From a virus, in IMG/VR virus record IMGVR_UViG_3300028920_000027, positions 1 through 64,000 of that record: DNA of 64,000 nt. One strand, 5' to 3'. Within the stretch, counting starts at the first letter, position 1; every line of letters starts with the position of its first letter. The position numbers and the translations under genes are program-made. Below are positions 9,916-44,629 of this stretch, in pieces. The notes under the pieces are model-generated. The model worked only from the letters and a program-made list of their open reading frames with translations. It ran no database searches and had not been told where the DNA came from.

Positions 9916-12342
9916 CTACCCCCAAAGATCGGCGTCGCCATAGTACCCAGCCGACGCGCCCCGATACTCAAAGGTGAAAATGTACTCATCCCCCGTAGCC
10001 CCCGAGCTCAAGTCCGGGGTCTGAGCTTGCCGCCACTTCACTGAAGACCAACCCGTCAGGCTATATCCACCAGAACCCCCTTGCAGGACTCGAAGAGAAT
10101 AGCGACCGGGAGCCGCGTTGCTGAAGTTGATAGTGGCCACGTTGCCCGTCAGGGTCACAGTCTGAACGTTGCCGTTGGACCAATCAACGTTCAACGTTCC
10201 AGAAACACTACCAATGGTGTATTCGCTGTTAAAGCTGGCCCTCTTGATGGCATAGATGCTCTGGTTTTGTGCATCAAGGTCACCGCCGAGCTGCGGGGTG
10301 AGGTCGTCGACCAAATTCTCCATGACAATGATGGTCGTGACATCCAGGATATTGACATCGGCCGTGTGGTTGTCGATGTAGTTGACGCCAACCTTGTTCG
10401 CCGTGTTGCCATTGGCGATGTACAGCCCGTCCCCATCGTTGTCTGAGACACGGTTACCAAGAATAACGGAGTAGTTGCTGTCTCCAGACTGAGGGGCCTC
10501 GATCCCGTTCCCCCCGTTGCCAACAACCTCGTTGAGGGACACTACACACGAGTCCCCCTTGATGGAGATGCCCGCACCGCCGTTGTCTCTCACCTTCCCA
10601 TTCACGAATGTGGAGTCGGGACCACAGTGCACACCGATCCCTCCGTTGCCGACTACAACAGCGGAGGCGCACGCCGTGCTCGTTCCAGCCAGGTAGACTC
10701 CCTCTTGCCCATTGTTGAGGGAGATCAGGTCCGTAATGGAGGTCTTGTCCGACGCTGAATCGAAGTATGCCCCGCGCGTATTGTTCCTTCGCACATTCGT
10801 TCCAGAGATGACCGTCCCAACACACCCAGTGCCGACATCTATCCCACACCCGTTGTTCAGTGCTGAAAAGATCTTGTTAAGCCCGGTGGTATTACAATTG
10901 GACAGGTAGATGCCGCCCGAAGCGCCGCCAATCAAAGCGCAGGTATCAAACACGATAGAGCTGCTTCTAGACAACTCCACATTGTACCCAGAGGTAGAGC
11001 CGTAAAATGCAGAACTGTTGACGATGATAGAAGCAGAATCCTCGATCTTCAGGTTCGTGGCGTTGCCCATGGCCAACGCCTTGTAGATGACCGCGCTGGA
11101 CCCTGCCCGGATGGAGATGCCAGCCGTTGTGGACCCTGTGACCAGGAACCCACTGAGACGGAACCGATGAGTAGTCTCGGCGATATAGGACAAGCCAGAT
11201 GCACTGGGCCCTAGCCATGGGCCCTGCACAGTAAGCTGCGTGTCAGACGCGATAGAAACTATCGGAAGGAGAATGATCCCATCAACCGTGATGACGTCTC
11301 CTGGGCTCAGGTTCGTGAACGTAGTGCTTGTGCCCGTAATGACCGCAGACCCGTAGGTGGCTGCCACCGTGCCCGCTGTCTCAACGGAACCACCCGACCC
11401 ATCCACCTTGAGCGAGTATGCCCCACCGTTGAACGTGATGATCGTGCCTTCCTCGCAGTGCAGATCCCCGCCATTCGGCAGGACAATGTCAGCGGTCTCC
11501 ACGTAGGTACCAACGTGAACAAATACCTTCTGGTTACCCGCTGCAAACGCCGCCGCGATAGAGGTGTAGTCCGCGGTACCATCATTGGCGCAAACAGCGT
11601 CGTATGCCGACTTACTCGGAACGAAGTCTACACCGCCACTCCCGTCTGGGGTCAACACGTGCTGAACATGACCATCTGTCATGTCTGCCGTATCCATCCC
11701 ATCGACGAGGTTGAGGGTGAAGTCCTTATCCGGAACCGTCATGGTTCGCAGGATACTGGTCGTCAAACCACTGAGGTCAAACGCGGCCTTCTTCGTAGGG
11801 TCCCCCGAATTTATTACACGAAAGAGGCTGTCCAGCACCTCTGTCACGGCGTGCGTGTGGTCAGACCGCGACAGGGACGTCGCGGTTCCTTCCGCGTTAG
11901 CAGAACCAGTAGAAACAGCAGCCGCCGTAGAAACGTCGTGCTTGTGATCCTGCCGGGCAGCCTCCGAAGAGGAGCCGACAGATGCTGCGGCCCGGGTAAC
12001 GTTGACGGGGGCAGTGCTGGTGACCACCGCGGCCCCGATCTGAGTGGGAGTGACCGAGTGAGGGTTCCCTGTGTCGTCCACGTGTGTGTCGAACGTCTCC
12101 TGAGTCACCCCAGCCTGTTGAGCCGCAACATTCGTGATGGGCTGAGCATTCTCGTCGACAACCGTAATGTACCCCGCACTGATCGCGTTCTGGACATCTG
12201 CCGACCGCCGAAGCTCCTCCATAGAGAACTCTAAGAGAAGGTCCAAATTGCTAACGGGATGCGGGATCGAACGGGCACCCAAATCGTCGAGGACAACCGG
12301 AGTCTGTGTACCCGAAGTCGTCACCAGAAATTGCTGAGCCAT
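9916..12342 (-). CDS. Tail fibre/tailspike with right-handed parallel beta-helix (pectin-lyase fold)
   Basis: 808 aa. DYTSIAAAFAAG..VFVHVGTYVE helix cap; repeated N(N)GxxGIxI coils; C-terminal DWSNGNVQTVTLTGN...VKW..PDLS fibre domain. Confidence 0.85.
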   Translation of the reverse strand: MAQQFLVTTSGTQTPVVLDDLGARSIPHPVSNLDLLLEFSMEELRRSADVQNAISAGYITVVDENAQPITNVAAQQAGVTQETFDTHVDDTGNPHSVTPTQIGAAVVTSTAPVNVTRAAASVGSSSEAARQDHKHDVSTAAAVSTGSANAEGTATSLSRSDHTHAVTEVLDSLFRVINSGDPTKKAAFDLSGLTTSILRTMTVPDKDFTLNLVDGMDTADMTDGHVQHVLTPDGSGGVDFVPSKSAYDAVCANDGTADYTSIAAAFAAGNQKVFVHVGTYVETADIVLPNGGDLHCEEGTIITFNGGAYSLKVDGSGGSVETAGTVAATYGSAVITGTSTTFTNLSPGDVITVDGIILLPIVSIASDTQLTVQGPWLGPSASGLSYIAETTHRFRLSGFLVTGSTTAGISIRAGSSAVIYKALAMGNATNLKIEDSASIIVNSSAFYGSTSGYNVELSRSSSIVFDTCALIGGASGGIYLSNCNTTGLNKIFSALNNGCGIDVGTGCVGTVISGTNVRRNNTRGAYFDSASDKTSITDLISLNNGQEGVYLAGTSTACASAVVVGNGGIGVHCGPDSTFVNGKVRDNGGAGISIKGDSCVVSLNEVVGNGGNGIEAPQSGDSNYSVILGNRVSDNDGDGLYIANGNTANKVGVNYIDNHTADVNILDVTTIIVMENLVDDLTPQLGGDLDAQNQSIYAIKRASFNSEYTIGSVSGTLNVDWSNGNVQTVTLTGNVATINFSNAAPGRYSLRVLQGGSGGYSLTGWSSVKWRQAQTPDLSSGATGDEYIFTFEYRGASAGYYGDADLWG

Positions 12343-12347
12343 GCTGA

Positions 12348-12833
12348 CTACCTCTTCTTGAAGACCGCGGTGATTGTCGGGTAGGAAATGTTGGTCCCGA
12401 GGCAGTAAAGCTGGATCCCATCCCCGGCATCGAAGTCAATGCTGAGGTCGTTTCGGAAGGCACTTGTCGCCGCCGTGATGTTGAGGATGGCCCCTGAAAC
12501 CAACGTACCGCCCAACCGAACCTGGGCCTGCCACGTCTGAGAGGCGCTCCCAGATGCCCCCATACCGATCAACGTGCTGTCGATGGGAAGGATGATCGGA
12601 GACAGGTTCGTTGGGACGTTCTGATGGTACCGAAGATATAGATCGGTCGTGTTCAAACTGGCTCGGCTCGCTCCCACAGCGAAAAGGTCATCCAACGCCC
12701 CCGCCGCCACCAAAGGGTAGACGGTCCCATCCGAAAGACGGACATAGAACCCGTCGGTCTTCGGGTACAGTAACATCTCTCCCGCCGCAGGTGTCGGGGG
12801 ATCCGTGGTCCTCTGTTGGAGCCGAAAGGTCAT
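12348..12833 (-). CDS. Putative fibre-associated protein
   Basis: Start MTFRLQQ at 12833 (ATGA overlap). PPTPAAGEMLLYPKTDGFY motif is common in phage fibre proteins. Confidence 0.65.
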   Translation of the reverse strand: MTFRLQQRTTDPPTPAAGEMLLYPKTDGFYVRLSDGTVYPLVAAGALDDLFAVGASRASLNTTDLYLRYHQNVPTNLSPIILPIDSTLIGMGASGSASQTWQAQVRLGGTLVSGAILNITAATSAFRNDLSIDFDAGDGIQLYCLGTNISYPTITAVFKKR

Positions 12834-13285
12834 ACCTCTACAATCTCCCCCCCGTCGATCACGGAGTACTCTTCGTTGACGCAATCAAAGCAAGTGAAAT
12901 CGGCTACAGGGTAGCTTTGCGTCGCCTGCACCGAAAAGCTCGACCGGCAGGACCTATCGAGTACGAATTCTGGGACGGTGAAGGGTACCCAGTCTGCGGC
13001 TCCTGGAGTCCCGTCTCTCAGAATGAACGATTCACCACTAGTCGAATTCAGCCACAGCATGCCAGCCCCAAACCCCGCGGAACTATCATCCGTCGCCGTG
13101 GGGTTCAGAAAGGAGCTCACATAGACGGCTCGAACTGTGAAGAGCCCAAGGACGTCTCGAGATCGAAGCTGTCCCCCAACATATCGGACTCCGCCTGTCT
13201 CAGGAGGGTCACCCGCTGCGTTCTCTTCGAGAATCAGGCCTTCTTCGGTCCGCTCTCCGGGAAATCTATCAGGAGTCCGCGGCAT
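12830..13285 (-). CDS. Putative fibre-associated protein
   Basis: 151 aa. NPTATDDSSAGFGAGMLWLNSTSGESFILRDGTPGAADW module is typical of phage fibre proteins. Confidence 0.7.
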   Translation of the reverse strand: MPRTPDRFPGERTEEGLILEENAAGDPPETGGVRYVGGQLRSRDVLGLFTVRAVYVSSFLNPTATDDSSAGFGAGMLWLNSTSGESFILRDGTPGAADWVPFTVPEFVLDRSCRSSFSVQATQSYPVADFTCFDCVNEEYSVIDGGEIVEV

Positions 13286-13907
13286 CCTTCCCTTTCGCTT
13301 TCTTCGCAGGTGCCTTCTTCGCAGGTGCCTTCTTCGCAGGTGCCTTCTTCGCAGGTGCAGGTGCCGGGTCCCCTCGAGCCTCCAGCCTTCGAGCGGCCAA
13401 GTCGTTGGCAGGGCGCACGCCGTCAGGTCGGGTGTCGGGCGGTCCCCGATGAAGAGGGGCTACCTTCCCGTCGGACTCGTCCCCTTCAAGAACGATCTCC
13501 CCATTCTCCAATGCCTTCTGGTAGTTCACAACCTTCCGCTCGTTGTCCCACTGCCTCTTGGTGATCTCATAGGACCGCAACAGCCCTTCCAGTCTACCCT
13601 GGCCTTGGAGGTGTGCCGCGTTCGCCTGAGTGGCCAGGTTCTCCAAAGAGAGCGCCGCCTTGAGCAGGTACTCCTTGATCAGCTTCTTGACCAGGAGAGG
13701 GTCCCCAAACTCCGAGAACTTGCCGTTATCACAGTCAGTATCCACTGCCTTGAAGACACTCTGCATCTTCTCCAAGGCATTGACCAGAGCAGTGTGCCCA
13801 CCCTTTTCTTCATAAAGGCGGGCCCTCGCCTCCGTCGCCTGCGCATCCAGCTCCTTCCCGATCCCTTGCAGGGTCAGGATTTTGACTTCAGCTTTGGCTA
13901 GATTCAT
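13269..13907 (-). CDS. Coiled-coil protein with histone-H1-like PAKKA tail
   Basis: Start MNLAK at 13907 with GGAG RBS; helical N-terminus; C-terminal (PAKKA)x4. Confidence 0.75.
   Translation of the reverse strand: MNLAKAEVKILTLQGIGKELDAQATEARARLYEEKGGHTALVNALEKMQSVFKAVDTDCDNGKFSEFGDPLLVKKLIKEYLLKAALSLENLATQANAAHLQGQGRLEGLLRSYEITKRQWDNERKVVNYQKALENGEIVLEGDESDGKVAPLHRGPPDTRPDGVRPANDLAARRLEARGDPAPAPAKKAPAKKAPAKKAPAKKAKGKDAADS
13300..13358. repeat. 15-bp tandem repeat x4 (encodes PAKKA)
   Basis: ttcttcgcaggtgcc repeated four times, last copy one base short. Confidence 0.95.
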
Positions 13908-13920
13908 CCGATCTCCATCT

Positions 13921-13955
13921 AAAAAGGGGGCCAAGGCGCGATTGGCCTGACCCCC
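13921..13955 (-). terminator. Intrinsic terminator
   Basis: Minus strand: GGGGGTCAGG-loop-CCTTGGCCCCC followed by TTTTT, downstream of 13978-15522. Confidence 0.75.
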
Positions 13956-13977
13956 CTTGGCTTACCCAGTCAGGTTA

Positions 13978-15522
13978 TCAACCCCAAACGATCATCGTGA
14001 TGACGTCGGGATTGCCGCCCCCCTTGACGTTGAACTCGAACATAAGGTCCCCATTCGCAGGAGTTGTGCCAGGGTAGACGTCGTGATTGGCCGCCGCGTC
14101 GGCGCCATTCCGCAGCAAGACGCCGTTGAGGTAGATATCCACGTCGGTGAGGAAGGTCGCGCTGCTGTAGTCCGGCAGCTGAGCGTCAAGATTGGGTGTT
14201 CCTCCTGCGCCTGTGACGTTGGTGTCGGGCGGGACGTTGGCCGTCAGCACGGCCACGCCCTTGGTGCGGCTGAGCCCAGCCGAAGCGTACAACTGGTTCA
14301 TGGCGTCTAGGAGGCTGACCTCGCCGAAGTTCGCCTCGAAGCTGTCCCACTCCGTTGTGGTCTCGGAGAGCTTGATGCCATCCGTCTGCGCCCATGTGGA
14401 GCCCGTCTGGTTACCGTCGTCGAGGTATAGCTCGCCTGCACCCAAAACGCGAAGGTCGTTGGTGCTCGTGGATTCAATAACACCCGCATTGACGCCGAGC
14501 TGAAGATCCTGGCCAGCCGAATCGACCGTGACCCCCCCAGCGAAATCCACTGTCGTCGAGTTGACGTCGAGGGTATCGCCTTGGATGCGTACGGTGTCAC
14601 CGCCGGCCGTGGGCACGACCTCGAAGAGGGCCGTCGTACCACTGGGTTCGTAGAAGCCCCAGGTCTGGGCGTCGGCGATGTTGACCTGGATCGAGCTGGT
14701 CTGGCCGACCGCGCCCGACTGATTGTCGATGGCGTTCTGAAGGGTGACGTCGACACTGCCTGCCTGATCGATAAAAGTGCCCGATAGAAAGGCTTCTTCA
14801 GGTACGTTGTCGAAGGCCACGCGCCGCACATAGGCGTAGTTGATCGAGGCGTTCTCGATGTCCGCAACGGGGACGGCTTCGAGGTCGTCACCCGTCGAGT
14901 TGATACGCACAAACGACAGCTGGACTCGGTTGGGGGTCGTCGTGGTGATGGTGTGCCCGTCGGTCGCGTTTTCCGACTGGATCAGCGCGTAAACCGTGCG
15001 GTTGTCGCTGAGAATGGGATCACCGGTCGACCCATCACGAACGATGCAAAGGTTCTTTGGACTGATTGCCGAACTGCCCGCCACCTCATCCAGGGCATGC
15101 GACCCGAAGGTCCCACCGTGGGCAGCCACGACGGTACCTTCCGTGGTCGAAGCCGCGCCGACCGCCGCGGTCGTGATGCTCGGGATTTCCCCTGATCCCA
15201 AGACCACATAGTTGTTGCTCGCCCCCACAGTGATGTCGGCCAGTGACTGCACTCGGAAGAGTAGTCGCTTCTCCTCGATGTCATCAAGGTCCGTGTTGAG
15301 CCCCAAAAGCGAACGCTTCTTGGCATTGACGGTGGGGATGTCGTCGTACCACGCGCCCGCTTGGTCATCAAGGATTCGACTGACCTGAGAACGTAGAGAA
15401 TTGAGGTCATCCTCAATATTAGCCGCCGCCGTTTCGAGGGCGGCCTGCCCAGCAGCAATGGTGTCATCGTAGACATCAGACTGCCGAATCTGGGTGTCCT
15501 GGCGAACGAAGGTGCGCGACAT
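13978..15522 (-). CDS. Virion structural (fibre-like) protein
   Basis: 514 aa, acidic and Ala/Thr/Gly-rich, short N-terminal coiled coil; AAGGA RBS; late motif upstream; terminator downstream. Confidence 0.7.
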   Translation of the reverse strand: MSRTFVRQDTQIRQSDVYDDTIAAGQAALETAAANIEDDLNSLRSQVSRILDDQAGAWYDDIPTVNAKKRSLLGLNTDLDDIEEKRLLFRVQSLADITVGASNNYVVLGSGEIPSITTAAVGAASTTEGTVVAAHGGTFGSHALDEVAGSSAISPKNLCIVRDGSTGDPILSDNRTVYALIQSENATDGHTITTTTPNRVQLSFVRINSTGDDLEAVPVADIENASINYAYVRRVAFDNVPEEAFLSGTFIDQAGSVDVTLQNAIDNQSGAVGQTSSIQVNIADAQTWGFYEPSGTTALFEVVPTAGGDTVRIQGDTLDVNSTTVDFAGGVTVDSAGQDLQLGVNAGVIESTSTNDLRVLGAGELYLDDGNQTGSTWAQTDGIKLSETTTEWDSFEANFGEVSLLDAMNQLYASAGLSRTKGVAVLTANVPPDTNVTGAGGTPNLDAQLPDYSSATFLTDVDIYLNGVLLRNGADAAANHDVYPGTTPANGDLMFEFNVKGGGNPDVITMIVWG

Positions 15523-15570
15523 GAGCTATCCTTAGGTCGGGTCCGTGGGTCTTCTCTGCTAAGGGTGGGC

Positions 15571-15579
15571 ATAAATGAG
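15571..15579 (-). promoter_or_regulatory. Candidate late-promoter motif CTCATTTAT
   Basis: Intergenic, 48 nt upstream of ATG 15522. Confidence 0.5.
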
Positions 15580-15588
15580 CTATTGGGC

Positions 15589-15915
15589 TCACGGCCCGTC
15601 CGTCGCGATGTAGTCAATCAACAAATGGTCCCCCGGACGGGGAGCCACTTCAAGGACTACAGTGTCATACCCCATGCCGAAGCCTTCACTCTCGTAGATC
15701 GTGTAGTCGTCGATCAGCGTCAAGCGGATGCCGTTGAAGTAGACCTGGATGGTCAGAAACGGCAGGTTGTGTGTGAATTTGTCCGGTGCTGGGACGGTGT
15801 AAACAACATTGACCCCATCCACCGGCCCAGCCAGCTGTTGCCCCGTCCGAAATCTCGCCGCAGCGATGTACTGCTGGGCAAGACTTTGAGGGTTGAGGTA
15901 GTTGAGAAGGTACAC
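15589..15915 (-). CDS. Small beta-sandwich virion protein
   Basis: 108 aa. GPVDGVNVVYT...IQVYFNGIRL..IDDYT...LLIDY repeat unit seen in phage fibre/baseplate proteins. Confidence 0.7.
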   Translation of the reverse strand: MYLLNYLNPQSLAQQYIAAARFRTGQQLAGPVDGVNVVYTVPAPDKFTHNLPFLTIQVYFNGIRLTLIDDYTIYESEGFGMGYDTVVLEVAPRPGDHLLIDYIATDGP

Positions 15916-16984: not shown

Positions 16985-17836
16985 TCATCTGTTGGGTTTC
17001 CTGCCCCGCGAAGGTGTTTTCTTGGGGAGCGGAATCGACCAGTCCTTCGTCGCATAGAGCACTGCGGCGACGTGCTTGCAAACGAAGTTCTCCCGGTCCG
17101 GGTCGCGAATATCGGGGGCACTGGCGGTCCCCTGAAGCTTACCTAGTTGGTACTTCTCGCTGGTCGAGTGGAACTCAGGCCCCTGCCATCGCCACGCAGG
17201 ACAGGTGCAGCTCAGTTCCAAGTCCATCTTGGCGAGCTGTGTCACGTTCCCCTTGCGCACCGCCCGCAACTTTACCGTGTAGTCGTGATTACCCTTCACA
17301 TTGAAGACCCAACGGAGATTGGCTCGGTCGATGCGCTTGACCGTGACTTCAGCACGACTGGCCCGGTCCAGTATCTTGGGGTTGAGCCCGTCCAGAATCT
17401 CGCCGAGCTTACGGGCGACCCGTACCCCCACCTCCGCCACGAAAGCGCGCACAGGGGTAAATTTGAGCCGGTACAGCTCAGCTACGAAGTGGGCCGAGGC
17501 ATTGTGGGAGTTGGGCACGCCGTCGCGGTAGGGGTACTTGGTCTTCGGGCTGTTCGAGTGGTCGCCCAGACCGCCGTACCCCGTGTCCCCTGATTGCCCC
17601 CGTTCATCTTGCCGGGTCTGGTGCTTGGCGAGGTCGTAGGGCCCATCGACCCGATGCATGCTGGTGTCGCTCTTGGTGTGCTCACGGGTGTGATCACCCG
17701 GCTTGGCGAAAGTCTTGGTCCCCGGAACGCTCTCGTCCAAAGGCAAACCTCGGCCAGCCGGCTCACCCTCGGGAAGTTGGGATTCAGCCGTCGTCGTGTC
17801 GCCATAGGGCGGACGGGTGACGAGAGGCTGCATCAT
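16985..17836 (-). CDS. SWIM zinc-finger protein
   Basis: LSCTCPAW...FVCKHVAAVL fits the SWIM CxC-xn-CxH motif. Confidence 0.8.
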   Translation of the reverse strand: MMQPLVTRPPYGDTTTAESQLPEGEPAGRGLPLDESVPGTKTFAKPGDHTREHTKSDTSMHRVDGPYDLAKHQTRQDERGQSGDTGYGGLGDHSNSPKTKYPYRDGVPNSHNASAHFVAELYRLKFTPVRAFVAEVGVRVARKLGEILDGLNPKILDRASRAEVTVKRIDRANLRWVFNVKGNHDYTVKLRAVRKGNVTQLAKMDLELSCTCPAWRWQGPEFHSTSEKYQLGKLQGTASAPDIRDPDRENFVCKHVAAVLYATKDWSIPLPKKTPSRGRKPNR

Positions 17837-20253
17837 ACTTTCCAGGGGTCTACCTCGGAGGCGGTCTTGGGCCGCGCTGCTTCCATCGCCGTGGGAAGCG
17901 CCTTGAGCTTCTGGATCATCTTGCCCTTGTCGGGGGTACCATACTTACGAATCCGCCTCGCAGCGGGCCCGCTGAAGGCTTCCAGGACCCAACGCCCACG
18001 CTCGAAGCCCAAGCTCACGTTGGCGTAGTAACTGTTCTGGAGAATGCCGTTGACCCACTCTTCTTGAGGGTCGAGTCCCAAGGTCATCATGAGTGATGCG
18101 TTGTGAGCCCCGCCGATGTTGCTGATGCGAACCTGCTTGTAGGGAACGGGAAGAGCCTCGGCGACGCGCCGGAAGTCCTCCAGGTGGCCCTTCAGCTGCT
18201 CAGCCCACTCCTTCTTGTCCTCGGGAACTTGGGTGATATCGGTCACCGCAACCCTGGTACCCCCTGTCTTCCGCTTAAAGAGCGTCCCCGCATTCTCTAA
18301 ATGGAACCCCTCGGGCCGCTCGTGTTCCTTGAGAGTCTCCCGAATCTTCTTGGCATCAGGGACGACAGACTTGCCCCGCACCTTGACGTAGCCCTTGCGA
18401 ACGAGACTCTTGATGACCTCGTTGTCGGGCCCGTACTCACCGAGCTTGTTCTCGTCGAAGTACTCCTTCCGGTAGCCGGCCTTGTAGTGTACCAAGTGGT
18501 GCATCGCGACCAGCTCTTTTGGGGAAAGGTCGCTCGACGCGGTCACCTTCCAACGGTCAACTTCGACAGTGGCTTCCTTGCCCGTGCCTGGCCAAGGGTC
18601 AGCGCCGCCCCAGCCGTTGTTGTCGCCCCGACCGTAGTCCTTGGACTCCACCATCCTGACCGGGCGAATCCGCTTACCGTCGATCATGGTCGGTCCGTAG
18701 AGCTTCCACATCCGCACCGAGTCAGCGCCCTCAACTACGGGCCCGCCCCGCTTGTCGAGGATGGCGGCCTGGAAACTGGGGCCTGCTGCCGAACGATGGG
18801 GTCCTAGGGAGTACTCATCCGTCAGAACGATGGTCTTGGGGGCGCTCATCAACTCCCGACTGACGAACTGAAGGACCCCCCGACGGTCCATCGTCTGGGG
18901 GTCATCATAGCCCCGCTCGACCGTCAAGTTGTTACCCTCCCCTCGAATGCGAATCGAGTCATCAGATGCCTTCTTGATGTTCGAGCCATCCTCGTCGACA
19001 TGAGAATCCCACTTCTTCTTGTCCTCAGGACTCATGTTCTGCGTGGGATCGGCGGGCTTGCCCTTCTCGAACTTCCCTTCCTTCCCGTCCGCCGATACGG
19101 TGGTGGCCTCTCTACCGAGGTAGAGGCCCACGGGGTCGCTGACCTCAGATGCCTTGATGTTCGAGCCATCCTCGTCGACATGAGAATCCCACTTCTTCTT
19201 GTCCTCAGGACTCATGTTCTGCGTGGGATCGGCGGGCTTGCCCTTCTCGAACTTCCCTTCCTTCTCCTCGGCTGAGGCCGAGTGGTTGTAGAACGCCTCA
19301 TCAGCGATGGTCGCTTCATAGTCGCGCCACTCCTGCTCTGCCTTGGCGCCTACCAAGAAGGTCTTGTCGTTGGGGAAGTACAGTACGCGGTCGCCCTTCT
19401 TAAAGGGTGTGCCGTCACGAGCCGTACCAGGGTAGCGCGCCTTGATCCACACAGGGTCATGTCCCCGTCGGGCACCCTGCTTGTCTTCGGACGCCATCCG
19501 CAAACCGAGAAGGGTCTTGACCTTCCGTGCCTGGTGCCGGAGTGCCTTGAGTCCTGACTCGATAAAAGCTGGCACCTCCTGCCCCATCATCGCTTCGGCA
19601 TCAACCTCTAGCTCATCAAGCGCTCGTTGAACCGCGCGCTCGTTAGGAAGGTTTGCCGCCATGATGTAGTCCCCCACCACGGTGCGCAAGAAACTGGCAA
19701 GCTTCACACTGCTCATGGTGCCCGACGCCGCTTGCTCCAGGGTTTCAGCCGCGGACTCGAAAAGGTCAGCCGCGGACTCCCTCGAGCGTGCTGTCTTCCG
19801 GCCGTTCTCCAGCTCTCTGATCAGGGCTACCAGGTCACGAATGGGGACCTCGTCTTTCCGGGTCTTGGCGGCGAGTTCACGAAGGGTCTTAGCTGTGGTT
19901 CTGGGGGTCATTGGCACTCCTCGACGCCGCACATGGCGCAACCGATTCTCTTCCAACACACGCTCCAGTTCCAAAACCTCGTTCTGGGGGAGGTCTTGCT
20001 TCAGCTCCTCGTAGTCAATGCGGTCAGCGGCCAAAGCCACCGCACTCAATGATTGCTGAAGACTGGCGAGACACTCAGGAGCTTGGTCGATGAGATGCCC
20101 AGCGACCTCAAAGAAGTGGTCACGGTGGCTCGACTTCTCAATAAGCTGTAGACCATCTGTCACGCAACGGGTGAGCCGGGCAAGGTACAACCGTGCGTTG
20201 CCCAGTTCTTCCTGAAGGTAGACGGTAACTCCCGATGCTGTCTTCTGTCCCAT
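17833..20253 (-). CDS. Modular putative head/internal protein (possible polyprotein)
   Basis: 806 aa of unrelated short modules separated by KTAS/KKAS/KEAT/RMAS-type motifs; contains an exact internal duplication. Confidence 0.75.
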   Translation of the reverse strand: MGQKTASGVTVYLQEELGNARLYLARLTRCVTDGLQLIEKSSHRDHFFEVAGHLIDQAPECLASLQQSLSAVALAADRIDYEELKQDLPQNEVLELERVLEENRLRHVRRRGVPMTPRTTAKTLRELAAKTRKDEVPIRDLVALIRELENGRKTARSRESAADLFESAAETLEQAASGTMSSVKLASFLRTVVGDYIMAANLPNERAVQRALDELEVDAEAMMGQEVPAFIESGLKALRHQARKVKTLLGLRMASEDKQGARRGHDPVWIKARYPGTARDGTPFKKGDRVLYFPNDKTFLVGAKAEQEWRDYEATIADEAFYNHSASAEEKEGKFEKGKPADPTQNMSPEDKKKWDSHVDEDGSNIKASEVSDPVGLYLGREATTVSADGKEGKFEKGKPADPTQNMSPEDKKKWDSHVDEDGSNIKKASDDSIRIRGEGNNLTVERGYDDPQTMDRRGVLQFVSRELMSAPKTIVLTDEYSLGPHRSAAGPSFQAAILDKRGGPVVEGADSVRMWKLYGPTMIDGKRIRPVRMVESKDYGRGDNNGWGGADPWPGTGKEATVEVDRWKVTASSDLSPKELVAMHHLVHYKAGYRKEYFDENKLGEYGPDNEVIKSLVRKGYVKVRGKSVVPDAKKIRETLKEHERPEGFHLENAGTLFKRKTGGTRVAVTDITQVPEDKKEWAEQLKGHLEDFRRVAEALPVPYKQVRISNIGGAHNASLMMTLGLDPQEEWVNGILQNSYYANVSLGFERGRWVLEAFSGPAARRIRKYGTPDKGKMIQKLKALPTAMEAARPKTASEVDPWKV
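18973..19264. repeat. Exact 112-bp direct repeat, period 180
   Basis: 18973-19084 is identical to 19153-19264; encodes EGKFEKGKPADPTQNMSPEDKKKWDSHVDEDGSNIK. Confidence 0.95.
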
Positions 20254-20282
20254 GGTGGAGCGCCTTGCTCCAAAGGCGCCCC

Positions 20283-20291
20283 ACCAAAGGA
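20283..20291 (-). promoter_or_regulatory. Variant late-motif candidate TCCTTTGGT
   Basis: Intergenic, 29 nt upstream of ATG 20253; two mismatches to TCCTTTTAT. Confidence 0.3.
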
Positions 20292-24880: not shown

Positions 24881-25759
24881 TTAGAAGCGCTGCACAACGA
24901 GGCGCGTCTCCCCCTTCGGGTTGAACGCGCCGATGCCGACGTTCTGGAAACACGAGAACCCAATGGTGCGGGCCTTCGGGTCGTCAGCCGACAGCACGGT
25001 GAGTTCCGTGCGAACTGGGAAACGTCCGAAATTCTCGGGCTCGGTGCAGAGGTACACAAAGCCGGCTGGAACCAGACGGCTGGTGATGATCTGCGCTCCC
25101 CAAAGCTGTGCCTGAAGACCAGTCTTGAGCAGCGTCGCTTGGGACTCGATGTCCAGGATGTCGCGACCGAACTTGCGAATGTCCGCGTAGTCCACGCTGT
25201 TCATGAAGATGCGAGCGACACGCAGGTCGTGACGCTCGATCTCCGCGAACGCATCCGCCAGTACCGAGGGGCTGATGGGCGCCACCACGTTGATGTCTGG
25301 GTTCGTCTGCCCGGGGATCGTGTCGAAGCCCGACACCGCGATGGAGTCGAGAACCGCGAAAACACGCTCGTCTTCCGCCGCCTGGATCTGTGCCTTCGCC
25401 AGGTCCTGAGCGCGTTCGATCAAGTCGAATCGACGCTCCTTGATCTGGGTGAGCGGGATCTCCGGATTCGAGGCGATCTCGAACAGCGGGAAGATGACGC
25501 GCCGAGGCTTCTGGATGGCGAGGATGTTCTCGCCTTCCTCACCCACGACAAATGCCGTGACCTCGGGATCCTTGTCGTAGATCGGAAGGGCGCCATCAGG
25601 AAGCTGCTCGACCAAGAAGGTCTTGCGGCCGACAGCTGTATAGTCCCTGCGGAGGCGCAAGGGTTGGATCATGGAAGCCGCGAGCTTGGCGCGACCGGCA
25701 GCCGTACGGATGTACTGGCTGATGACCTGTTGTTTCTGAGCGTTGCTGACCTGGTTCAT
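24881..25759 (-). CDS. Major capsid protein (HK97 fold)
   Basis: 292 aa, last gene of the protease-scaffold-decoration run. E-loop-like LPDGALPIYDKD, backbone helix LIERAQDLAKAQIQAAEDERVF, A-domain LWGAQIITSRLVPAG. Strong AAGGA RBS. Confidence 0.88.
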   Translation of the reverse strand: MNQVSNAQKQQVISQYIRTAAGRAKLAASMIQPLRLRRDYTAVGRKTFLVEQLPDGALPIYDKDPEVTAFVVGEEGENILAIQKPRRVIFPLFEIASNPEIPLTQIKERRFDLIERAQDLAKAQIQAAEDERVFAVLDSIAVSGFDTIPGQTNPDINVVAPISPSVLADAFAEIERHDLRVARIFMNSVDYADIRKFGRDILDIESQATLLKTGLQAQLWGAQIITSRLVPAGFVYLCTEPENFGRFPVRTELTVLSADDPKARTIGFSCFQNVGIGAFNPKGETRLVVQRF

Positions 25760-26507: not shown

Positions 26508-27746
26508 TTAGGAAAAGTGGTCGCTCACGTCAGGAGCCGAGTTCCAAAGTCCCGAAAGCTGGTCGACATCGTTGCCGCTGGCGGACTGACCCGCAGGGGT
26601 TCCGGAGCTTCCAATCTTCGAGACACCGCTCGTGGGGCGAGTGCCCACGGTACGGGTGGATGCAGTGTGCACGCCGGGGGCGGCGGGCTGGACAAGGGTA
26701 CCGTTCTCAATGGCCGCCGCCTTGGTGGCAGCCTGGACTTCACCGTTGCTCGCAAACAGGCTGGTGAGCACAGCGTCTTCCGGCCCCAGGTCAACCTCAC
26801 CCACGTCCATCGTCGGGGAGTCGATCATGATATCGTCGTCCATGGCTTCGAGGGCCATCTCGTCGTCCATGGCTTCAGGAGTCATTCCGTCACCACACGC
26901 CATGTCGTCCATCAACGCGGCTTCGAGGTCGTCGTCCATCGCCAGGGGGCTACCACCCTGGGAGAACGCTGTGCTGTCCTGGCTCGCCTGGGGCTGACCC
27001 TGAGCAGCTGCGATCTCGGCTCGAACCATCGACCGCAGCTCCTCGGCGAACTGTGTCATGTTGCCCGTCTTGGCAGCGTCGAACGCCTTCTTGAACTGCG
27101 GGGGTACTTCACCCTTCTTGGACTTGTCGCCATCATCCTTGGACTTGTCGCCATCATCCTTGGACTTGTCGCCATCATCCTTGGACTTGTCGCCATCATC
27201 CTTGGACTTGTCGCCATCATCCTTGTCACCCTCACCCTTCTTGGGCGCGGCGGCGGCGGTCTTGTCACCGTCATCATCGTCATCGTCACCACCCTCGTCT
27301 GCTCCGGTCTGATTCAGAGTCGCTAGACGGTTGTGAGTCTCAATGAGGTTGAGGTCGGGCATGTCCATGAATGCAAGCGCCTGCTCTTCGACCGCTGCTT
27401 CGGTAGCCCGTGTACCGAGCATCCAGCGCGCTGTGCGCGTGGCCACGCTAGCCTTCTTCTCGATGGTCTCGTCGTCGAGGCCAGCGGTCTTGAAGGTGTC
27501 GGCACGGAACTCAGGCTGCCCGATCTCGTTACGACGAGTCTGGCCACCTGCCTGCTCTGCCTTCCAGGTGCCTGCCGGCGGATGCACGTCTTCAGCAAAC
27601 TCGCTTGGGCCACCAATGACGTAGTCACCTGCCCCCGGCTGCTTGGAGAGGTGGTCTTGGTTCATGGCGCGAGGATCTTCCGCCGTGCGGAGATTCGCCG
27701 CCTTGGTGCGGATGACATCTCGGTTCCAGGTGGTGCGCTCGCGCAT
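26508..27746 (-). CDS. Putative scaffolding protein
   Basis: 412 aa, acidic and low-complexity, located between the protease and decoration/MCP genes. Confidence 0.7.
   Translation of the reverse strand: MRERTTWNRDVIRTKAANLRTAEDPRAMNQDHLSKQPGAGDYVIGGPSEFAEDVHPPAGTWKAEQAGGQTRRNEIGQPEFRADTFKTAGLDDETIEKKASVATRTARWMLGTRATEAAVEEQALAFMDMPDLNLIETHNRLATLNQTGADEGGDDDDDDGDKTAAAAPKKGEGDKDDGDKSKDDGDKSKDDGDKSKDDGDKSKDDGDKSKKGEVPPQFKKAFDAAKTGNMTQFAEELRSMVRAEIAAAQGQPQASQDSTAFSQGGSPLAMDDDLEAALMDDMACGDGMTPEAMDDEMALEAMDDDIMIDSPTMDVGEVDLGPEDAVLTSLFASNGEVQAATKAAAIENGTLVQPAAPGVHTASTRTVGTRPTSGVSKIGSSGTPAGQSASGNDVDQLSGLWNSAPDVSDHFS
27117..27221. repeat. 21-bp perfect tandem repeat x5 (DDGDKSK)
   Basis: cttggacttgtcgccatcatc repeated five times. 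Confidence 0.95.
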
Positions 27747-27796: not shown

Positions 27797-29284
27797 TCAG
27801 GAGCTACCAAGGTCGTAGAGGCGCCCCTTGGCGATTAGAGCGTCCGCCTCGGACACGGTTGGGGTTCGACCCATTGCGCGTCGGCAAGCCGCCATGTACC
27901 CATTCTCATCTGCATATGCGGCTACCCCGCCCACTGCGAGAACCGTCCGATAGACGTCTTGCTCCGTGGGCAGCCGGGGTTGACCGGTGAACTCGTCGAC
28001 ATACCTCGACAGGGCCAGCATCGAACGCGGCGTGAAGGCACGCGCCATGCGGACCCGGTTCCACCCACCATGGTGGTAGAGAAACAGCCCCCACAGCAGG
28101 TGGGACAGCACCTTGCGGTCTGACACCTTGCGACCCAAGCGAAGAGCCACTTTCTGCCACCGAGGATCGACCGTTGCCGTACGGAGCGCTGCTTCCTTGG
28201 TCAAGGTCTCGTTCAAGTTGGAGTCGAGAATAGTGGACTCTGGACCCTTGATCTCATCACGAAGCTTGCGGACCGCACGATCTCGAAGCGCCTCGGCAAT
28301 CTCGTTGACTGCCTTGTCGAATGGTGCGTCTTCAGCAGGCTTTTTGGCCTCTCCACCGCCCTCATCGCCATCGGGCCCGCCGAAATCGAAGGCCAATGAA
28401 CGTGCCCGGTTGGCAGCACGTGACATGAGGTCAGGGTTGGTGACCCTTGGAATCTGACTAAAGGCCACCTGAATCCGCGATCCCATCATGGCCGCTTCTT
28501 GAGGGGTCAGGATGTTGCGGAGAACAGCTCCCGTGAAAGCAGGGTTGGCAACCCAGCTCGCCTCAATGAAACGCACACTGCCGGGCTCGTCTATCAAGTG
28601 ACCGCACAGCTCGGCAATCTTGCGCTGCTTGCCTAGCCCATCGAGGAAAAGATTGCCCTTCTGGTACTTGATGTGGCCGCAGAGCTGTGTCTCGTCCTCG
28701 GCAACATTGCCACATTTGGTGCACGTCGTGTGAGTAACCTGGCACCCCATACTCAACGTCTTCAGCTGCTCCTTTTGGATGGCAGCGATCAACGGACGGT
28801 GCCTGAGATCAGTGGCAACGAGAATGTCGACGTAGATGGAGTCCCCAATGTCGCGGGCAGCGGCATCAATGATTTTGCCCTTTGACATCTCGGGCACCTG
28901 AAGGTGTTCGACGTAGTTCTCACCACCAACGAAGGTACGGAAGCAGGCCAGTAGAAGTCGGCGCTCCCAACAGTCGTTGTTGTTGTTGATGTACTTGCTC
29001 GTCTCGGGGGTGACGTAGTAGTCCGCAAACCGGCGGTTGACCTGGAATCCATTGTCCATCTGCCGACCGAGCTGCCCCGGACCATTCTCAGTATCGACTG
29101 AGGCCACGATGGTACAGTGGCTGAGCAGATACTGATCCGGGTGGAATCGCCGAAGCGCCCCCGAAGCGTTGCGCTCGTTGAAGTGCCCGCCTGCTACGGT
29201 CGCTGCATGGAGAACCTCATCCCAAGCCGCGCGGCTGATGGCGGGCTTGACGAGGGTTGCGTCGGCAGTCTTCAGAAAAGCCAA
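27797..29284 (-). CDS. Prohead maturation protease (HK97/herpes-assemblin fold) with Zn-finger insert
   Basis: YVEH..SKGKIIDA (His), TLSMGC (Ser) and FIEASWVANPAF motifs; CTKC...CGH insert; upstream of the scaffold. Confidence 0.85.
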   Translation of the reverse strand: MAFLKTADATLVKPAISRAAWDEVLHAATVAGGHFNERNASGALRRFHPDQYLLSHCTIVASVDTENGPGQLGRQMDNGFQVNRRFADYYVTPETSKYINNNNDCWERRLLLACFRTFVGGENYVEHLQVPEMSKGKIIDAAARDIGDSIYVDILVATDLRHRPLIAAIQKEQLKTLSMGCQVTHTTCTKCGNVAEDETQLCGHIKYQKGNLFLDGLGKQRKIAELCGHLIDEPGSVRFIEASWVANPAFTGAVLRNILTPQEAAMMGSRIQVAFSQIPRVTNPDLMSRAANRARSLAFDFGGPDGDEGGGEAKKPAEDAPFDKAVNEIAEALRDRAVRKLRDEIKGPESTILDSNLNETLTKEAALRTATVDPRWQKVALRLGRKVSDRKVLSHLLWGLFLYHHGGWNRVRMARAFTPRSMLALSRYVDEFTGQPRLPTEQDVYRTVLAVGGVAAYADENGYMAACRRAMGRTPTVSEADALIAKGRLYDLGSS

Positions 29285-40954: not shown

Positions 40955-41379
40955 GGCTTTGATCCTTGTGGAGGGGTGTCACCACCCCCTTCGGTCCTGA
41001 TCAAATACTGGGACAGGTTTCTCACCGTGGCAAATCCCCTGTCATCTTTGATCCTGACGTCTACCTTCCCTGATTGGTTGTCCCGACCCGTCTCAGCGAA
41101 GTTGCGCACCCCTGCGTTCTCAGGGGTCAATTTGAATACATCCTGTGGTCGGATGTCTCGACGGTCAGCCTTAGCCCCATCTTCTTTTGGCGGTTGCTCC
41201 TTCCCCTCTTGCTTCTGAATCTTGGTCGGCACGTTGAGCAGACGGTTGACGGGAGTCACGTTCTCCCGGACCTTCCGCCGACTCCCAGGTGCCTGGCCCG
41301 CTGCACGGGCAACAAATCGAGCCGCAATATCTGCCCGATAGCGGGCAGCAACTCGAAAAGCGATCGAGCGGTCCGTCAC
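40951..41379 (-). CDS. Basic hypothetical protein
   Basis: 142 aa; RVAARY motif; overlaps both neighbours by 4 nt. Confidence 0.7.
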   Translation of the reverse strand: MTDRSIAFRVAARYRADIAARFVARAAGQAPGSRRKVRENVTPVNRLLNVPTKIQKQEGKEQPPKEDGAKADRRDIRPQDVFKLTPENAGVRNFAETGRDNQSGKVDVRIKDDRGFATVRNLSQYLIRTEGGGDTPPQGSKP

Positions 41380-43316
41380 AGCTCGATACCTTCCTCCAGG
41401 GCTCCGGCGAACTCGACTGCCAAGGGCTCAACCTCGACCTCAGGGTCGAGCTCGATGTCGAAATCAGCTGTGTGCCGCTGTAGATCCATCTCGGCCATCA
41501 TACTGACCCCATTGTTAACGAGATTCGCGAAGTTGATTTCTGTCGATCTGCCGGATGCCAGAACCGCACGCTGGGCCTCGGCCTTACCCTCCGGGTACTC
41601 CACCTGCTCCACAACGGGCCTGCCAATCGCTCGACATATGCCCTGGTCGTTGCGAAACACACACGATGTGCAGGCGCTCCCGAGCTTCACAAACGGGACC
41701 CCCCGGCTCCGATGTAGGCGTGACGCCTCCTTGCAGCCCCGACCGTAATCGTCGTAAACCGTTGGATCTACATAGTAAATCCCCTGAAGTCCCTGCTCGG
41801 CTATGAACGGTTTGAGCTGGGCGACGGAAGCCATGAGGTCTCGCTTCTCGAAACGACTCTTGAGCGCGGCCATCAGCTCGGCCCCGTAGAGCCCCTCATT
41901 GAGGAAGCGGCGAGCTGTCTTGACGACTTCCCGCACTGTCAACCCGCCGGTCGAATGGGCATGCTCGCCCGCGATGTGGGCGCGCTCCACAAGGGCTCGA
42001 GAAGGGAGGCTTTGGACGGCGCCTGGGTGTCCCGAGGCAGCCTTGTGGATGGCTTGCAATGCCGCCTTAGGGGTCTCGCCCCACTCAACCTGAGAAGCCG
42101 TCCTGGGCAGCGTTCCGACGAGCCTGTGCTCCTCGATCACGGCATTGACTGTGGCGGCAGTTAACACCTCGTCAGGGCTCGCCACCAAGCGCTTGCCGTA
42201 CATCATGCACTGGCCCACCTGGGCGTAGATGCACGAGGCACATTTGGGCCCGGCCACGATTGCACGGGTTTTGCTCCCCCGCCGGGCCAAGAAATCAGCG
42301 CCCTCATGGCAAGAGTCGAACGACTCCTGAGTCGTGTAGACTGTGCCGTACACTCCCGCCTCGCGGAAGAGGGGCTCCCAGTGAGCTCGAGTCTCGTCGA
42401 GCAAATTGCCATCGAAGCTCAACTTCAGTGTCTTCAGGAGTCCCAGCTCGCTCCGGCCCTTGTGCATCTCACGGCGCAAAGTCGCCAAGATAGGGCGAGC
42501 CTTGAGCGCCACGGGGTCATGTACCTTCTTCTTGGTGAGACGGTCCGCGGGCACGACCGCAGCTGCCCGGTTGGGCTGGCCACTGAACTGCCGAGGCTCT
42601 GGGGAGGCATCGTCAAGGAAAGCCGCTCGAATGCGTGCCCGAGGGCCCCCTTCAGTCGCGGCCTTGCCTTGGGACCGCTCGATAGCCACCGCCAGCTCTG
42701 TCGTGTACGGCACCTCGACGACCAGCTCCTTGTTGAAGACGGCGCAGTGATTACCATTGGCGTGGCGGCACTCCTGGCAGGTATCCTTGGCCTTGAGGTA
42801 CGGGGCTTTGCCCGCGAACCGACGGACGAACTCCGCTGCCTCGGGACGCCCAGTGTTACAGGTCGGGAAATCAGCGGCGTCGATGTAGTAGCGCCCCAGG
42901 AGCCCCCGCTCGGCCAAAACCCCCGCCAACGCGCTCTTGACGCTAGCAAGCCGAGATCCGAAACGGGTCCGCAGGGACTCGGCGATCCGCCCCGCGTGGG
43001 TCGTGCGCATCATGGCGAGTCGAGCCCCCCGCAAAATATCGGCGGGTTCGGACCGAAGCGGCCCATGCAGCTGGCTCATGTCACCCATGGTGTGGGGCGC
43101 ACCCGCGTTGGGAATGAGGTAGTTCGTGCTCGGTTGCCCTTCGTGACTCCAAAGAGCCTTCAGGTCCGGCACGACGTCAAGGTTCTGCTTTGGTAGGGTG
43201 TCTTCCTTGCGGTAGACCGACTCGTCGACCATCATCCAGTCGAGGTTGGCAGGAGTCTCTCCGTCCGCAACGGTGGCGTCCTTCATAATGTAGCCGATAT
43301 CGCCAATCTCGCTCAT
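41376..43316 (-). CDS. Hypothetical protein with three Cys4 repeat modules
   Basis: 646 aa; three ExGxxGxxY...C...CxxC-x7/8-C modules. Confidence 0.8.
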   Translation of the reverse strand: MSEIGDIGYIMKDATVADGETPANLDWMMVDESVYRKEDTLPKQNLDVVPDLKALWSHEGQPSTNYLIPNAGAPHTMGDMSQLHGPLRSEPADILRGARLAMMRTTHAGRIAESLRTRFGSRLASVKSALAGVLAERGLLGRYYIDAADFPTCNTGRPEAAEFVRRFAGKAPYLKAKDTCQECRHANGNHCAVFNKELVVEVPYTTELAVAIERSQGKAATEGGPRARIRAAFLDDASPEPRQFSGQPNRAAAVVPADRLTKKKVHDPVALKARPILATLRREMHKGRSELGLLKTLKLSFDGNLLDETRAHWEPLFREAGVYGTVYTTQESFDSCHEGADFLARRGSKTRAIVAGPKCASCIYAQVGQCMMYGKRLVASPDEVLTAATVNAVIEEHRLVGTLPRTASQVEWGETPKAALQAIHKAASGHPGAVQSLPSRALVERAHIAGEHAHSTGGLTVREVVKTARRFLNEGLYGAELMAALKSRFEKRDLMASVAQLKPFIAEQGLQGIYYVDPTVYDDYGRGCKEASRLHRSRGVPFVKLGSACTSCVFRNDQGICRAIGRPVVEQVEYPEGKAEAQRAVLASGRSTEINFANLVNNGVSMMAEMDLQRHTADFDIELDPEVEVEPLAVEFAGALEEGIEL

Positions 43317-44629
43317 TGGTAAATGTCCTTCTGGGGATCATGGACGGGCCCTCGTCGATGCTGGGGCGTCGAGTAGTCGTAGCGCACGTAACCGGTTGCA
43401 GCGTCCTCACCAAGGGCGTGGGTGTCGTGCAGCTCCGTGACGTTGGTCTCCTGCCAAACTTGCTCTTCCCCTGGTAGCTCAGATGAAGCCAAGGGCGTAT
43501 TGACGAGACTGCCCCGGTCTCCCTCGAAGTAGTCACTGCGAGCCACAGGCTCCTCAAAGTCTCCCGGAAGCTCACTGGCACTTTGGCGGTTGATGTTCAG
43601 CTCCACCGCGGGCGTCGTGTCTTCGATGAAGAGCGAGGCGTCCTCCTTGGGAAGGCTCTCCTGGGGATTCTCTACACCCTGACCCTTGGCGCCAAAGCCA
43701 AGACCGAAGTCATACCCTTCGGTGGGAGTACCATCGGTGGGGAGCGCGCTGGCTGCCAGGGCGTCGATGGCTTCCCCCCGCCCCATCGCCAGCAAGTCGG
43801 CCATGGTAGGGAGCCGTGCGAACCGTCGGAGGTCACCCCCATCCGAAACCTCTCGCTTCTTGACGAGCTGAGGGTCCTCATCGTTATAGGAACCGTAGGG
43901 ACCCTCACCCGTCGCCGGACCACGTTCATCTACGCGAGGGCCGCCGCTATCGTCCACGGTCGTCGAGGGTACGCTCGCCACCTTTACCCCCAAGTCGTCT
44001 TGAGAAGGTGTGTCCTGGGGGTTTAGGCTGCCCCCATCAGGTAACTTGGACCCCCCACCCTCTCGAGGATCCCTCAACCCTCCAGGACCGTCGTTCTCTT
44101 CCTCGATGTCCTTGATGCGCTGCTCGGCCTCGGCCTCGGGCTGCTCCATCACCTCTGCTGACTCCTCGACGAAACGCTGGATGTCCTCGACGGTATTGGA
44201 GTCGAGCTGGGAAAGCTTGGGCTGCCAGTGAGGCGCCTGGATCTCGTCGTAGAGCGTGTCAGCGATGGCGCTCAAAGCCTCGCTCGCCTCCCAAAGCTTC
44301 TTGCGGGTGTCGGCGATGCTCATGACGTAGCCGCGTCCTCCAAGGAGACCATCAGGACTGATGGTTGTGCTCTTGATGCGACTCAAGTGTCGGTGTGCCG
44401 TGAGCGCGTGTCCAAGCGCCACACTACACGCGAACAATGCCTTGCTGAGCGGCTTGAGGGCCTTGGGGTCAAAACCGTGATCCTTGGGAATGTCGCGCTT
44501 CTGGCTGCCCGCGTTCTGGTCGAATTGAGGGGGCACCTGCCCCTTCATAGATGGGGGTGCGCCCGCAGCGGTCTTGGGGCGCTCGCCTCGTGCATACCGT
44601 GCTGCCACCTTTCGTGCCACATCGCCCAT
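43313..44629 (-). CDS. Hypothetical head-module protein
   Basis: 438 aa; RKVAARY start, helical middle, acidic disordered C-terminus. Confidence 0.75.
   Translation of the reverse strand: MGDVARKVAARYARGERPKTAAGAPPSMKGQVPPQFDQNAGSQKRDIPKDHGFDPKALKPLSKALFACSVALGHALTAHRHLSRIKSTTISPDGLLGGRGYVMSIADTRKKLWEASEALSAIADTLYDEIQAPHWQPKLSQLDSNTVEDIQRFVEESAEVMEQPEAEAEQRIKDIEEENDGPGGLRDPREGGGSKLPDGGSLNPQDTPSQDDLGVKVASVPSTTVDDSGGPRVDERGPATGEGPYGSYNDEDPQLVKKREVSDGGDLRRFARLPTMADLLAMGRGEAIDALAASALPTDGTPTEGYDFGLGFGAKGQGVENPQESLPKEDASLFIEDTTPAVELNINRQSASELPGDFEEPVARSDYFEGDRGSLVNTPLASSELPGEEQVWQETNVTELHDTHALGEDAATGYVRYDYSTPQHRRGPVHDPQKDIYQ

Follow-up and report, generated by a model that had tools for sequence, protein, structure and literature searches.

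The DNA analysed here, a window of 64,000 nucleotides (nt; positions 1 to 64,000 of IMG/VR record IMGVR_UViG_3300028920_000027), is part of an uncultured huge phage whose 182 kb contig has 59% GC and a CheckV completeness of 38%. A terminase, a portal protein and a prohead protease are encoded in the window. The subject of this report is P0001, an open frame of 806 codons at 17833-20253 on the minus strand (-), which codes for a protein of 806 amino acids (aa). Its stop codon shares four nucleotides (ATGA, 17833-17836) with the start of the downstream gene, which encodes a SWIM zinc-finger protein, and this overlap suggests translational coupling of the two. An earlier note, made from the letters alone, had described the frame as a string of unrelated modules bounded by K/R-x-A-S/T motifs, with one unit duplicated over 112 identical bp. 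The follow-up bore out these features and placed P0001 in a large and apparently undescribed family of head-operon proteins from a clade of huge phages, in which a conserved 45-aa motif and short K-x-A-S junctions lie at the boundaries of hypervariable modules.

The duplication is a direct repeat of 123 nt inside P0001 (18973-19095 and 19153-19275; 97% identity, 180-nt spacing). The longest stretch without a mismatch measures exactly 112 nt (19153-19264 = 18973-19084), and after a 3-nt indel similarity picks up again through the ending IK(K)AS. The two arms encode two copies of a punctuation motif, copy 1 at residues 326-370 (19144-19278 (-); 62 bits with the hidden Markov model (HMM) of the motif) and copy 2 at residues 386-430 (18964-19098 (-); 64 bits), the latter ending in IKKAS. 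Between them lies a spacer of 15 aa (EVSDPVGLYLGREAT..., 19099-19143 (-)) that belongs to the 180-nt duplicated unit. Homologs have two stretches of P0001 in common, residues 1-200 and about 320-440, the C-terminal half being almost unique, and the second of these stretches is this duplicated unit. What was duplicated is thus a family-wide motif plus a 15-aa spacer, with no cargo between the copies. Since only the spacer separates them, the repeat points to a recent tandem duplication of a punctuation element and, contrary to what the earlier note had supposed, not of a cargo module or effector.

In the sequence logo the motif reads approximately A[AS][DE][DE]EKxS[RK]FEEGKPADPTxNMSPEDAKKWK......KDxFKxA. 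It is acidic, holds invariant P, D, P, T, M and W residues, and its conservation drops sharply at both flanks. One, two, three or four copies are present in 63, 91, 51 and 7 proteins, respectively, and 6 of 218 are without a copy. In 12 relatives (including P0020 552-584 and P0098 115-159), the Pfam OAS1_C model (positions 141-188) matches exactly on the motif, above the gathering score; these matches reflect a short local likeness, DPADPT.N...W, to the C-terminal tail of 2'-5'-oligoadenylate synthetase. The motif string was not found in the searchable literature and, as far as these searches show, the motif, the K-x-A-S junctions and the WK[AV] tail treated below appear not to have been described previously.

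Seven [KR]xA[ST] strings are present in P0001, where 1.25 would be expected. Not one of 2000 composition-preserving shuffles reached seven, so the excess is real and not due to chance. Across the family, [KR]xAS was counted 702 times against 136 expected (5.2-fold). Five of the seven sites in P0001 lie at the N-terminus (residue 4), at module boundaries (residues 252, 427 and 559) and before the C-terminal tail (residue 796). Family-wide, K-x-A-[SG] peaks sharply at both edges of the motif and also at the N-terminus and the C-terminal tail, and FKxA[SG] forms the end of 111 motif units. The 212 genes of this genome contain only 45 [KR]xAS strings, and these cluster in P0001 and a small number of further unannotated proteins encoded between the terminase and the upstream genes.

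Several boundaries in P0001 that lack an intact motif carry what look like remnants of one. The junction RMAS (residues 252-255; 19489-19500 (-)) separates the N-terminal domain from the first module, and the surrounding ASEDKQ..ARRG, compared by eye with P0003, may be what remains on either side of a motif copy since lost. The junction ADPWPGTGKEATVEVDRWKVTASS (residues 551-574; 18532-18603 (-)) holds WKV and TAS elements and is probably an eroded copy, as its weak alignment to the intact motif of P0117 (pairwise E 0.002) would indicate. A partial copy at residues 677-695 (PEDKKEWAEQLKGHLEDF, E 4e-4) opens the last module, so that, counting also the apparent eroded copy at 551-574, a motif, whole or decayed, stands at most of the module boundaries in P0001. 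In the predicted structure, the N-terminal domain, the first module and the motif helices are confident, and scores of the predicted local distance difference test (pLDDT) are low at the junction stretches 327-336, 368-396 and 429-458, which are probably exposed.

The variable region of P0001 consists of module Z, the two motif copies and modules C1, C2 and C3. Each module has homology partners of its own, in agreement with the claim of the earlier note that unrelated units are strung together. Module Z (residues 265-323; 19285-19461 (-)), with the signature GDPxWIxAKYPG...DE.VYN, is predicted as a small beta-plus-helix domain at pLDDT 95-98, and fold searches with it returned short treble-clef-like matches only. 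C1 (residues 433-541; 18631-18957 (-)) is homologous to P0116 27-131 (67% identity) and P0017 273-383, and C2 (residues about 575-660; 18274-18531 (-)) to parts of P0117, P0014 and P0126. C3 (residues 666-795; 17869-18258 (-)) matches P0122 (71% identity), P0002 (59%) and phrog_3308 and ends in ARPKTAS; this ending, ARPK.AS, is kept in all three carrier proteins, whether or not the chain continues beyond it. When residues 431-806 were used as a region query, P0002 was the sole match. A tblastn search of P0001 against 50,697 phage records gave no match, and ESM Atlas, Foldseek and VIA-wide searches assigned no fold to its parts.

A word-indexed search recovered 111 relatives of 444-1405 aa, and an exhaustive search at least 745 clusters at 50% identity. 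The common plan is a helical N-terminal domain of about 200-250 aa, a string of hypervariable modules with the motif or KxAS at the boundaries, and a KxAS..WK[AV] tail. The variable region ranges from 0 to about 800 aa, and minimal members (P0182, 222 aa; L032, 240 aa) consist of the N-terminal domain, one motif and WKA. A role as tape-measure protein was ruled out by the lengths of 222 to 1405 aa in syntenic relatives and by absence from Tunturiibacter phage Tunturi_5 and Bacillus phage G.

In P0001, the N-terminal domain spans residues 1-250 (core 1-200; 19504-20253 (-)), opens with KTAS at residues 4-7 and forms a long helical hairpin at residues 6-87. Residues 1-200 are common to approximately 93 of the 111 homologs and include the nearly invariant string EELGDARLR...HFFEVAGH...ALAA..DYEE.K, and K.A[SGT]..VYL precedes the domain at the N-terminus in 137 of 218 members. 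The domain is modelled at pLDDT 75-94 with the first ~90 residues as the hairpin, and fold searches with both models (Foldseek against PDB and BFVD, and VIA-wide) found generic helical-hairpin matches only, with Z at most 9.1. At the other end stands the tail KTASEVDPWKV (17836-17868 (-)). A W[KRQ][VAILT] element within the last eight residues, in the family form K[TN]AS..(D)PWK[AV], is present in 86 of 218 members. Just upstream of the start codon, at 20254-20290 (-), a hairpin GGGGCGCC/GGCGCTCC was observed, the loop of which appears by eye to hold a GGAG Shine-Dalgarno sequence.

The earlier note had proposed that module gain and loss breakpoints be compared with the motifs in homologs. A first breakpoint test on X-masked proteins was blurred, with only about 3-fold enrichment, inter-motif segments often holding several modules; tracing of single modules resolved it. 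Module Z (59 aa) is found in 26 members at positions from residue 51 to residue 1044, typically beginning 2-6 residues past the motif end FK[SA]A. A motif directly adjoins 23 of the 27 copies. Breakpoints thus coincide with the motif and the KxAS junctions. In L035 (9914-11893), the family gene is split, so that ORF A (open reading frame A) holds the N-terminal domain and a motif-first ORF B, beginning MRDPWKVSSEDDKQSRFEEGKPADPT, starts 4 nt later. Small proteins without the N-terminal domain, made of a leader, the motif and one module, also exist (60-148 aa and larger). From the module shuffling, the L035 split and the stand-alone proteins, the basic cassette appears to be one motif plus one module, and such cassettes have been gained, lost, duplicated and moved between proteins across the family. 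The cassette-like, expandable architecture suggested in the earlier note is therefore upheld. Repeated motif-coding DNA, as in the 112-nt identical duplication, provides homology for unequal recombination and would make the locus expandable.

Some further features of the relatives were recorded. In L036, the match to the N-terminal domain and the motif fall in separate ORFs. A second conserved leader, ..LR.RLIRLA..NPE.R.DLLPLL.., stands before the motif in the short relatives P0235, P0243, P0251-P0253 and P0260, and another group of short relatives opens with MNNARWN.Y. The only Pfam families found among the modules of 51 members were HMG_box, KOW, DUF2280 and Peptidase_C39, of which the HMG-box and KOW modules hint at nucleic-acid binding. 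Peptidase_C39 is fused to the motif in two relatives only, P0108 and P0111. This genome has, outside the window, a 292-aa ORF with a sub-threshold Peptidase_C39_2-like match at 113166-113393 (-) (E 1.2e-4, 19.7 bits), which could be a cysteine peptidase relevant to processing.

P0001 lies among head genes. The major capsid protein (MCP; 292 aa, 24881-25759 (-)) matches the Gp27 major capsid protein of PDB 6wkk (E 2.9e-60) and phrog_2522, and its closest named relatives are those of Tunturi_5 (47% identity) and phage G (gp27, 37%). Contigs bearing the family reach 450 kb, and their MCP resembles phage G gp27. The order g1119-g263-protease-g412-g209-MCP-[methyltransferase/uracil-DNA glycosylase (MTase/UDG) island]-g393-P0001 family-SWIM protein-g182-g213 was found in 52 of 52 related viral loci, and inside the 20-kb neighbourhoods of these loci the motif is limited to the P0001-family gene. 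Each complete genome has a single gene of this canonical form in its head operon, and some encode a further protein, motif-first, at a distance of hundreds of kb. In G003 (536 kb), for example, the head-operon gene is cut down to a 144-aa ORF of the N-terminal domain at ~125.9 kb, and a 743-aa motif-first protein is encoded at ~200 kb. The SWIM protein is kept in Tunturi_5, whose database entry calls the homolog 'tail protein'; no support for the deposited Tunturi_5 names came from PHROG scans. In the slot of P0001, Tunturi_5 has gp335, which is unrelated to it.

The candidate processing enzyme is the prohead maturation protease of the same operon (495 aa, 27797-29284 (-)), which matches phrog_18299 and is 39% identical to the 'head maturation protease' of Tunturi_5. 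The same protease family was present in all five motif-bearing genomes tested (E 1e-72 to 1e-146). The proteases of Tunturi_5 and phage G are more distant, and both phages are without the motif and the family. An invariant Cys-rich insertion (TxCTKCGN...LCxH...C) was observed inside the catalytic domain, together with a C-terminal extension of ~200 aa with conserved QKAAR, LIKSAL and GGWxAV elements. A protease string resembling the P0001 tail, RTATVDPRWQKV, was dropped, since it is not conserved in homologs.

Adjoining the protease is a 412-aa ORF, g412 (26508-27746 (-)), which is distinct from the MCP and probably encodes the scaffold. Its N-terminal region is conserved (MRERTTWNR..ADP..MNQDH...W[KE]AE...TF..KTAS), and it has four positionally conserved [KR]xA[STGA] sites; none are found in the decoration protein, g393, g182 or g213. 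A likeness between the motif and the g412 N-terminus was tried and was not significant (hhalign P about 0.1). Elsewhere in the window, the highest [KR]xAS density of the genome is found in an unannotated 646-aa protein (41376-43316 (-); five sites, including PRTASQVEW) with three internally repeated units that by eye each have a CxxC...C cluster. The proteins next to it (43313-44629 and 44635-44922) contain KTAA, RTAS and KVAS strings.

Altogether, we favour, at a probability of roughly 40%, the interpretation that P0001 enters the prohead as a precursor and that the maturation protease then cleaves its K-x-A-S junctions and so releases the modules. Entry into the prohead would proceed through the N-terminal domain, the motif or both. 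The protease, encoded 8 kb upstream, would then cut the exposed K-x-A-S junctions, and the released modules, perhaps together with the acidic 45-aa peptides, would serve as small internal proteins and leave the capsid along with the DNA. This interpretation draws on the family architecture, the fixed slot of the gene in the head operon, the enrichment and placement of KxAS, the low predicted order at the junctions and the autonomy of the modules, as well as on the conserved K-x-A sites of g412 and the co-occurrence of the motif with the protease family. It also has precedents in the multi-site processing of head proteins (PMC10052503) and in domain release (PMC5512222). A more far-reaching version, which we regard as somewhat doubtful, is that the motif and K-x-A-S constitute a plug-and-play polyprotein with which a clade of huge phages packages and co-injects arrays of interchangeable orphan effectors, the protease freeing the cassettes and the acidic peptides acting inside the capsid.

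A number of observations weigh against cleavage and packaging. The protease has no Pfam or PDB sequence match, so that no family with known specificity can be assigned to it. K-x-A is a short string in proteins rich in Lys and Ala, and conserved K-x-A sites also lie near the N-terminus of the MCP. No module follows the motif in 35 of 304 units, which lie within 15 residues of the C-terminus, and in C3 half of a motif appears to be built into the folded module (helix 678-700). Complete genomes contain only one or two motif-bearing genes, and the motif is thus not a broad sorting signal. Motif-bearing proteins without the N-terminal domain adjoin GroEL, AAA+ ATPase and helicase genes, far from the head operon; such non-structural neighbourhoods are neither proof nor exclusion of a signal like the one on T4 internal proteins. 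Finally, the family and the motif are absent from the cultured relatives Tunturi_5 and phage G, which keep the protease and the MCP, and the gene is thus an accessory of a sub-clade.

One such neighbourhood was recorded in a 536-kb phage (L059), where a 1206-aa helicase-like protein (12197-15817) adjoins the motif-first protein, also matches a DNA methyltransferase PHROG of 2269 positions, and has a phage GroEL gene two genes upstream. We take this helicase-like/methyltransferase protein to be reminiscent of the capsid-packaged DarB of phage P1.

The same observations can be read in other ways. The main rival, which we consider somewhat less likely than the precursor, is that P0001 is an uncleaved multivalent adaptor in which the motif docks on one conserved partner of phage or host (a chaperone- or unfoldase-type machine, the protease or a capsid component), with the modules as beads on a string and K-x-A-S as the ends of the docking element. 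In its favour, the motif is as well conserved as the best part of the N-terminal domain, which the modules are not, and the frequent tandem copies without cargo between them suggest avidity. An adaptor would also suit the motifs that stand at the very N- or C-terminus of a protein or lie in non-structural surroundings beside GroEL and AAA+ genes. It nevertheless leaves unexplained the KxAS signature at the N-terminus and at motif-less module ends, as well as the natural fission at a junction in L035.

The two remaining alternatives fit less well than either the precursor or the adaptor. A structural virion protein (neck, collar, whisker or decoration), with the N-terminal domain as anchor, surface modules serving adhesion or host range in the manner of Hoc or a fibre, and the motif as a semi-rigid spacer, is unlikely. 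The modules are small, charged and largely helical or poorly ordered, include HMG-box and KOW domains and are not Ig-like or beta-helical; some members lack any module, some relatives share the virion genes without having a P0001-family gene, and copies without the N-terminal domain are encoded elsewhere in the genome. What speaks for it is the position of the gene between the MCP and tail-fibre-like genes, the ATGA coupling to the SWIM protein with its homolog deposited as 'tail protein', and the conserved N-terminus with variable C-terminus that is typical of fibres. That the motif is conserved mainly as DNA, as a site for recombination of mobile cassettes without any role for the peptide itself, is highly improbable. 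The 112 identical nt between the P0001 copies and the movement of cassettes between proteins would suit such a site, as would a same-codon fraction slightly higher in the motif than in the N-terminal core (0.56 vs 0.43), yet this excess is explained by the two-codon Lys/Glu/Asp composition and conservation at the DNA level is not convincing. Moreover, copies within a gene are little more alike than copies between genes (0.69 vs 0.58 aa identity), and the invariant P, D, P, T, M and W residues indicate selection on the peptide.

Comparison with known systems places P0001 near several of them. The internal proteins of phage T4 (IPI-III and Alt) carry a cleavable capsid targeting sequence (CTS) of ~10 aa, which is strictly N-terminal, ends in L/I-x-E and is borne by one cargo per gene. 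The earlier note had drawn a parallel to IPI, which blocks the GmrSD restriction enzyme, and as a concept it stands: in both cases a portable short peptide is attached to unrelated small proteins, with a possible link to the maturation protease and with genes that are not necessarily in the head operon. No homology was found, as P0001 had no Pfam or PHROG match to IPI, IPII, IPIII or Alt and tblastn against the 50,697 phage records was empty. Unlike the CTS, the element here is 45 aa long, internal and repeated, with K-x-A-S junctions; the P0001 N-terminus, MGQKTASGVTVYLQEEL, has an L-x-E at residues 13-15, inside the conserved first helix. The MuF/SPP1 gp7-type polymorphic toxins of temperate phages combine a conserved, head-associated N-terminal domain with a variable C-terminal payload. 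P0001 shares the conserved N-terminal domain and variable C-terminal part but has no Pfam family at E<=0.01 (hence no MuF), several payload modules plus the motif, and no recognised toxin domain. Multi-core precursors of ribosomally synthesized and post-translationally modified peptides (RiPPs), such as the cyanobactin precursor PatE of bacterial secondary metabolism, contain hypervariable cassettes of 6-8 aa, each flanked by conserved protease-recognition sequences, and the number of cassettes varies by duplication. This likeness is an analogy only, since the cassettes of P0001 are folded modules of 60-140 aa in a phage virion operon.

In the polyvalent proteins of phages and conjugative elements, a single polypeptide joins several unrelated domains and is often encoded in the company of late or virion genes. 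The domains are proposed to accompany the DNA and to be set apart from each other by proteolysis, and the set of domains changes fast in evolution (Iyer et al. 2017, PMC5512222). That injected phage proteins of several domains release them is a concept established there, and the class is defined by enzymatic or conflict domains together with an embedded peptidase (MPTase). P0001 resembles them in having at least two unrelated domains, with separate partners for N, Z, C1, C2 and C3. It differs in that no Pfam or PHROG peptidase and no recognised conflict or enzymatic effector domain is found in it (the 51 members scanned gave only HMG_box, KOW, DUF2280 and C39), that its modules are orphans of 60-140 aa, and that the 45-aa motif and KxAS junctions are not described for polyvalent proteins. 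In phage SPN3US, multi-site processing of head and ejection proteins such as gp245 by the prohead protease is established, and phiKZ-like giant phages cut head proteins at several copies of a short consensus and fragment the propeptides (PMC10052503). Like such substrates, P0001 is encoded with head genes and co-occurs with the protease. The phiKZ-like substrates, in contrast, are single-fold proteins with long N-terminal propeptides, whereas P0001 is a shuffled module array from a phage G-like MCP lineage without homology to them. In the way it would work, the P0001 family is most like polyvalent, T4 CTS-tagged or phiKZ-type processed proteins and yet appears to belong to none of them, with no embedded peptidase, conflict enzyme, MuF domain or T4 internal-protein homology.

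Orphan genes number in the hundreds in huge phages, whose capsid contents are poorly known. The portable 45-aa motif and the four-residue junction mark dozens of small autonomous modules as candidate injected or capsid-internal proteins. If the junctions are indeed protease sites, virion cargo could be predicted from sequence alone, and foreign proteins could be loaded into large capsids. Even without cleavage, the conservation of the motif implies a conserved partner in these phages. Lastly, if arrays of interchangeable cassettes are packaged and co-injected, the family would represent a counterpart, at the scale of protein domains, of the multi-core RiPP precursors, and these phages would have a new way of evolving their injected arsenal.

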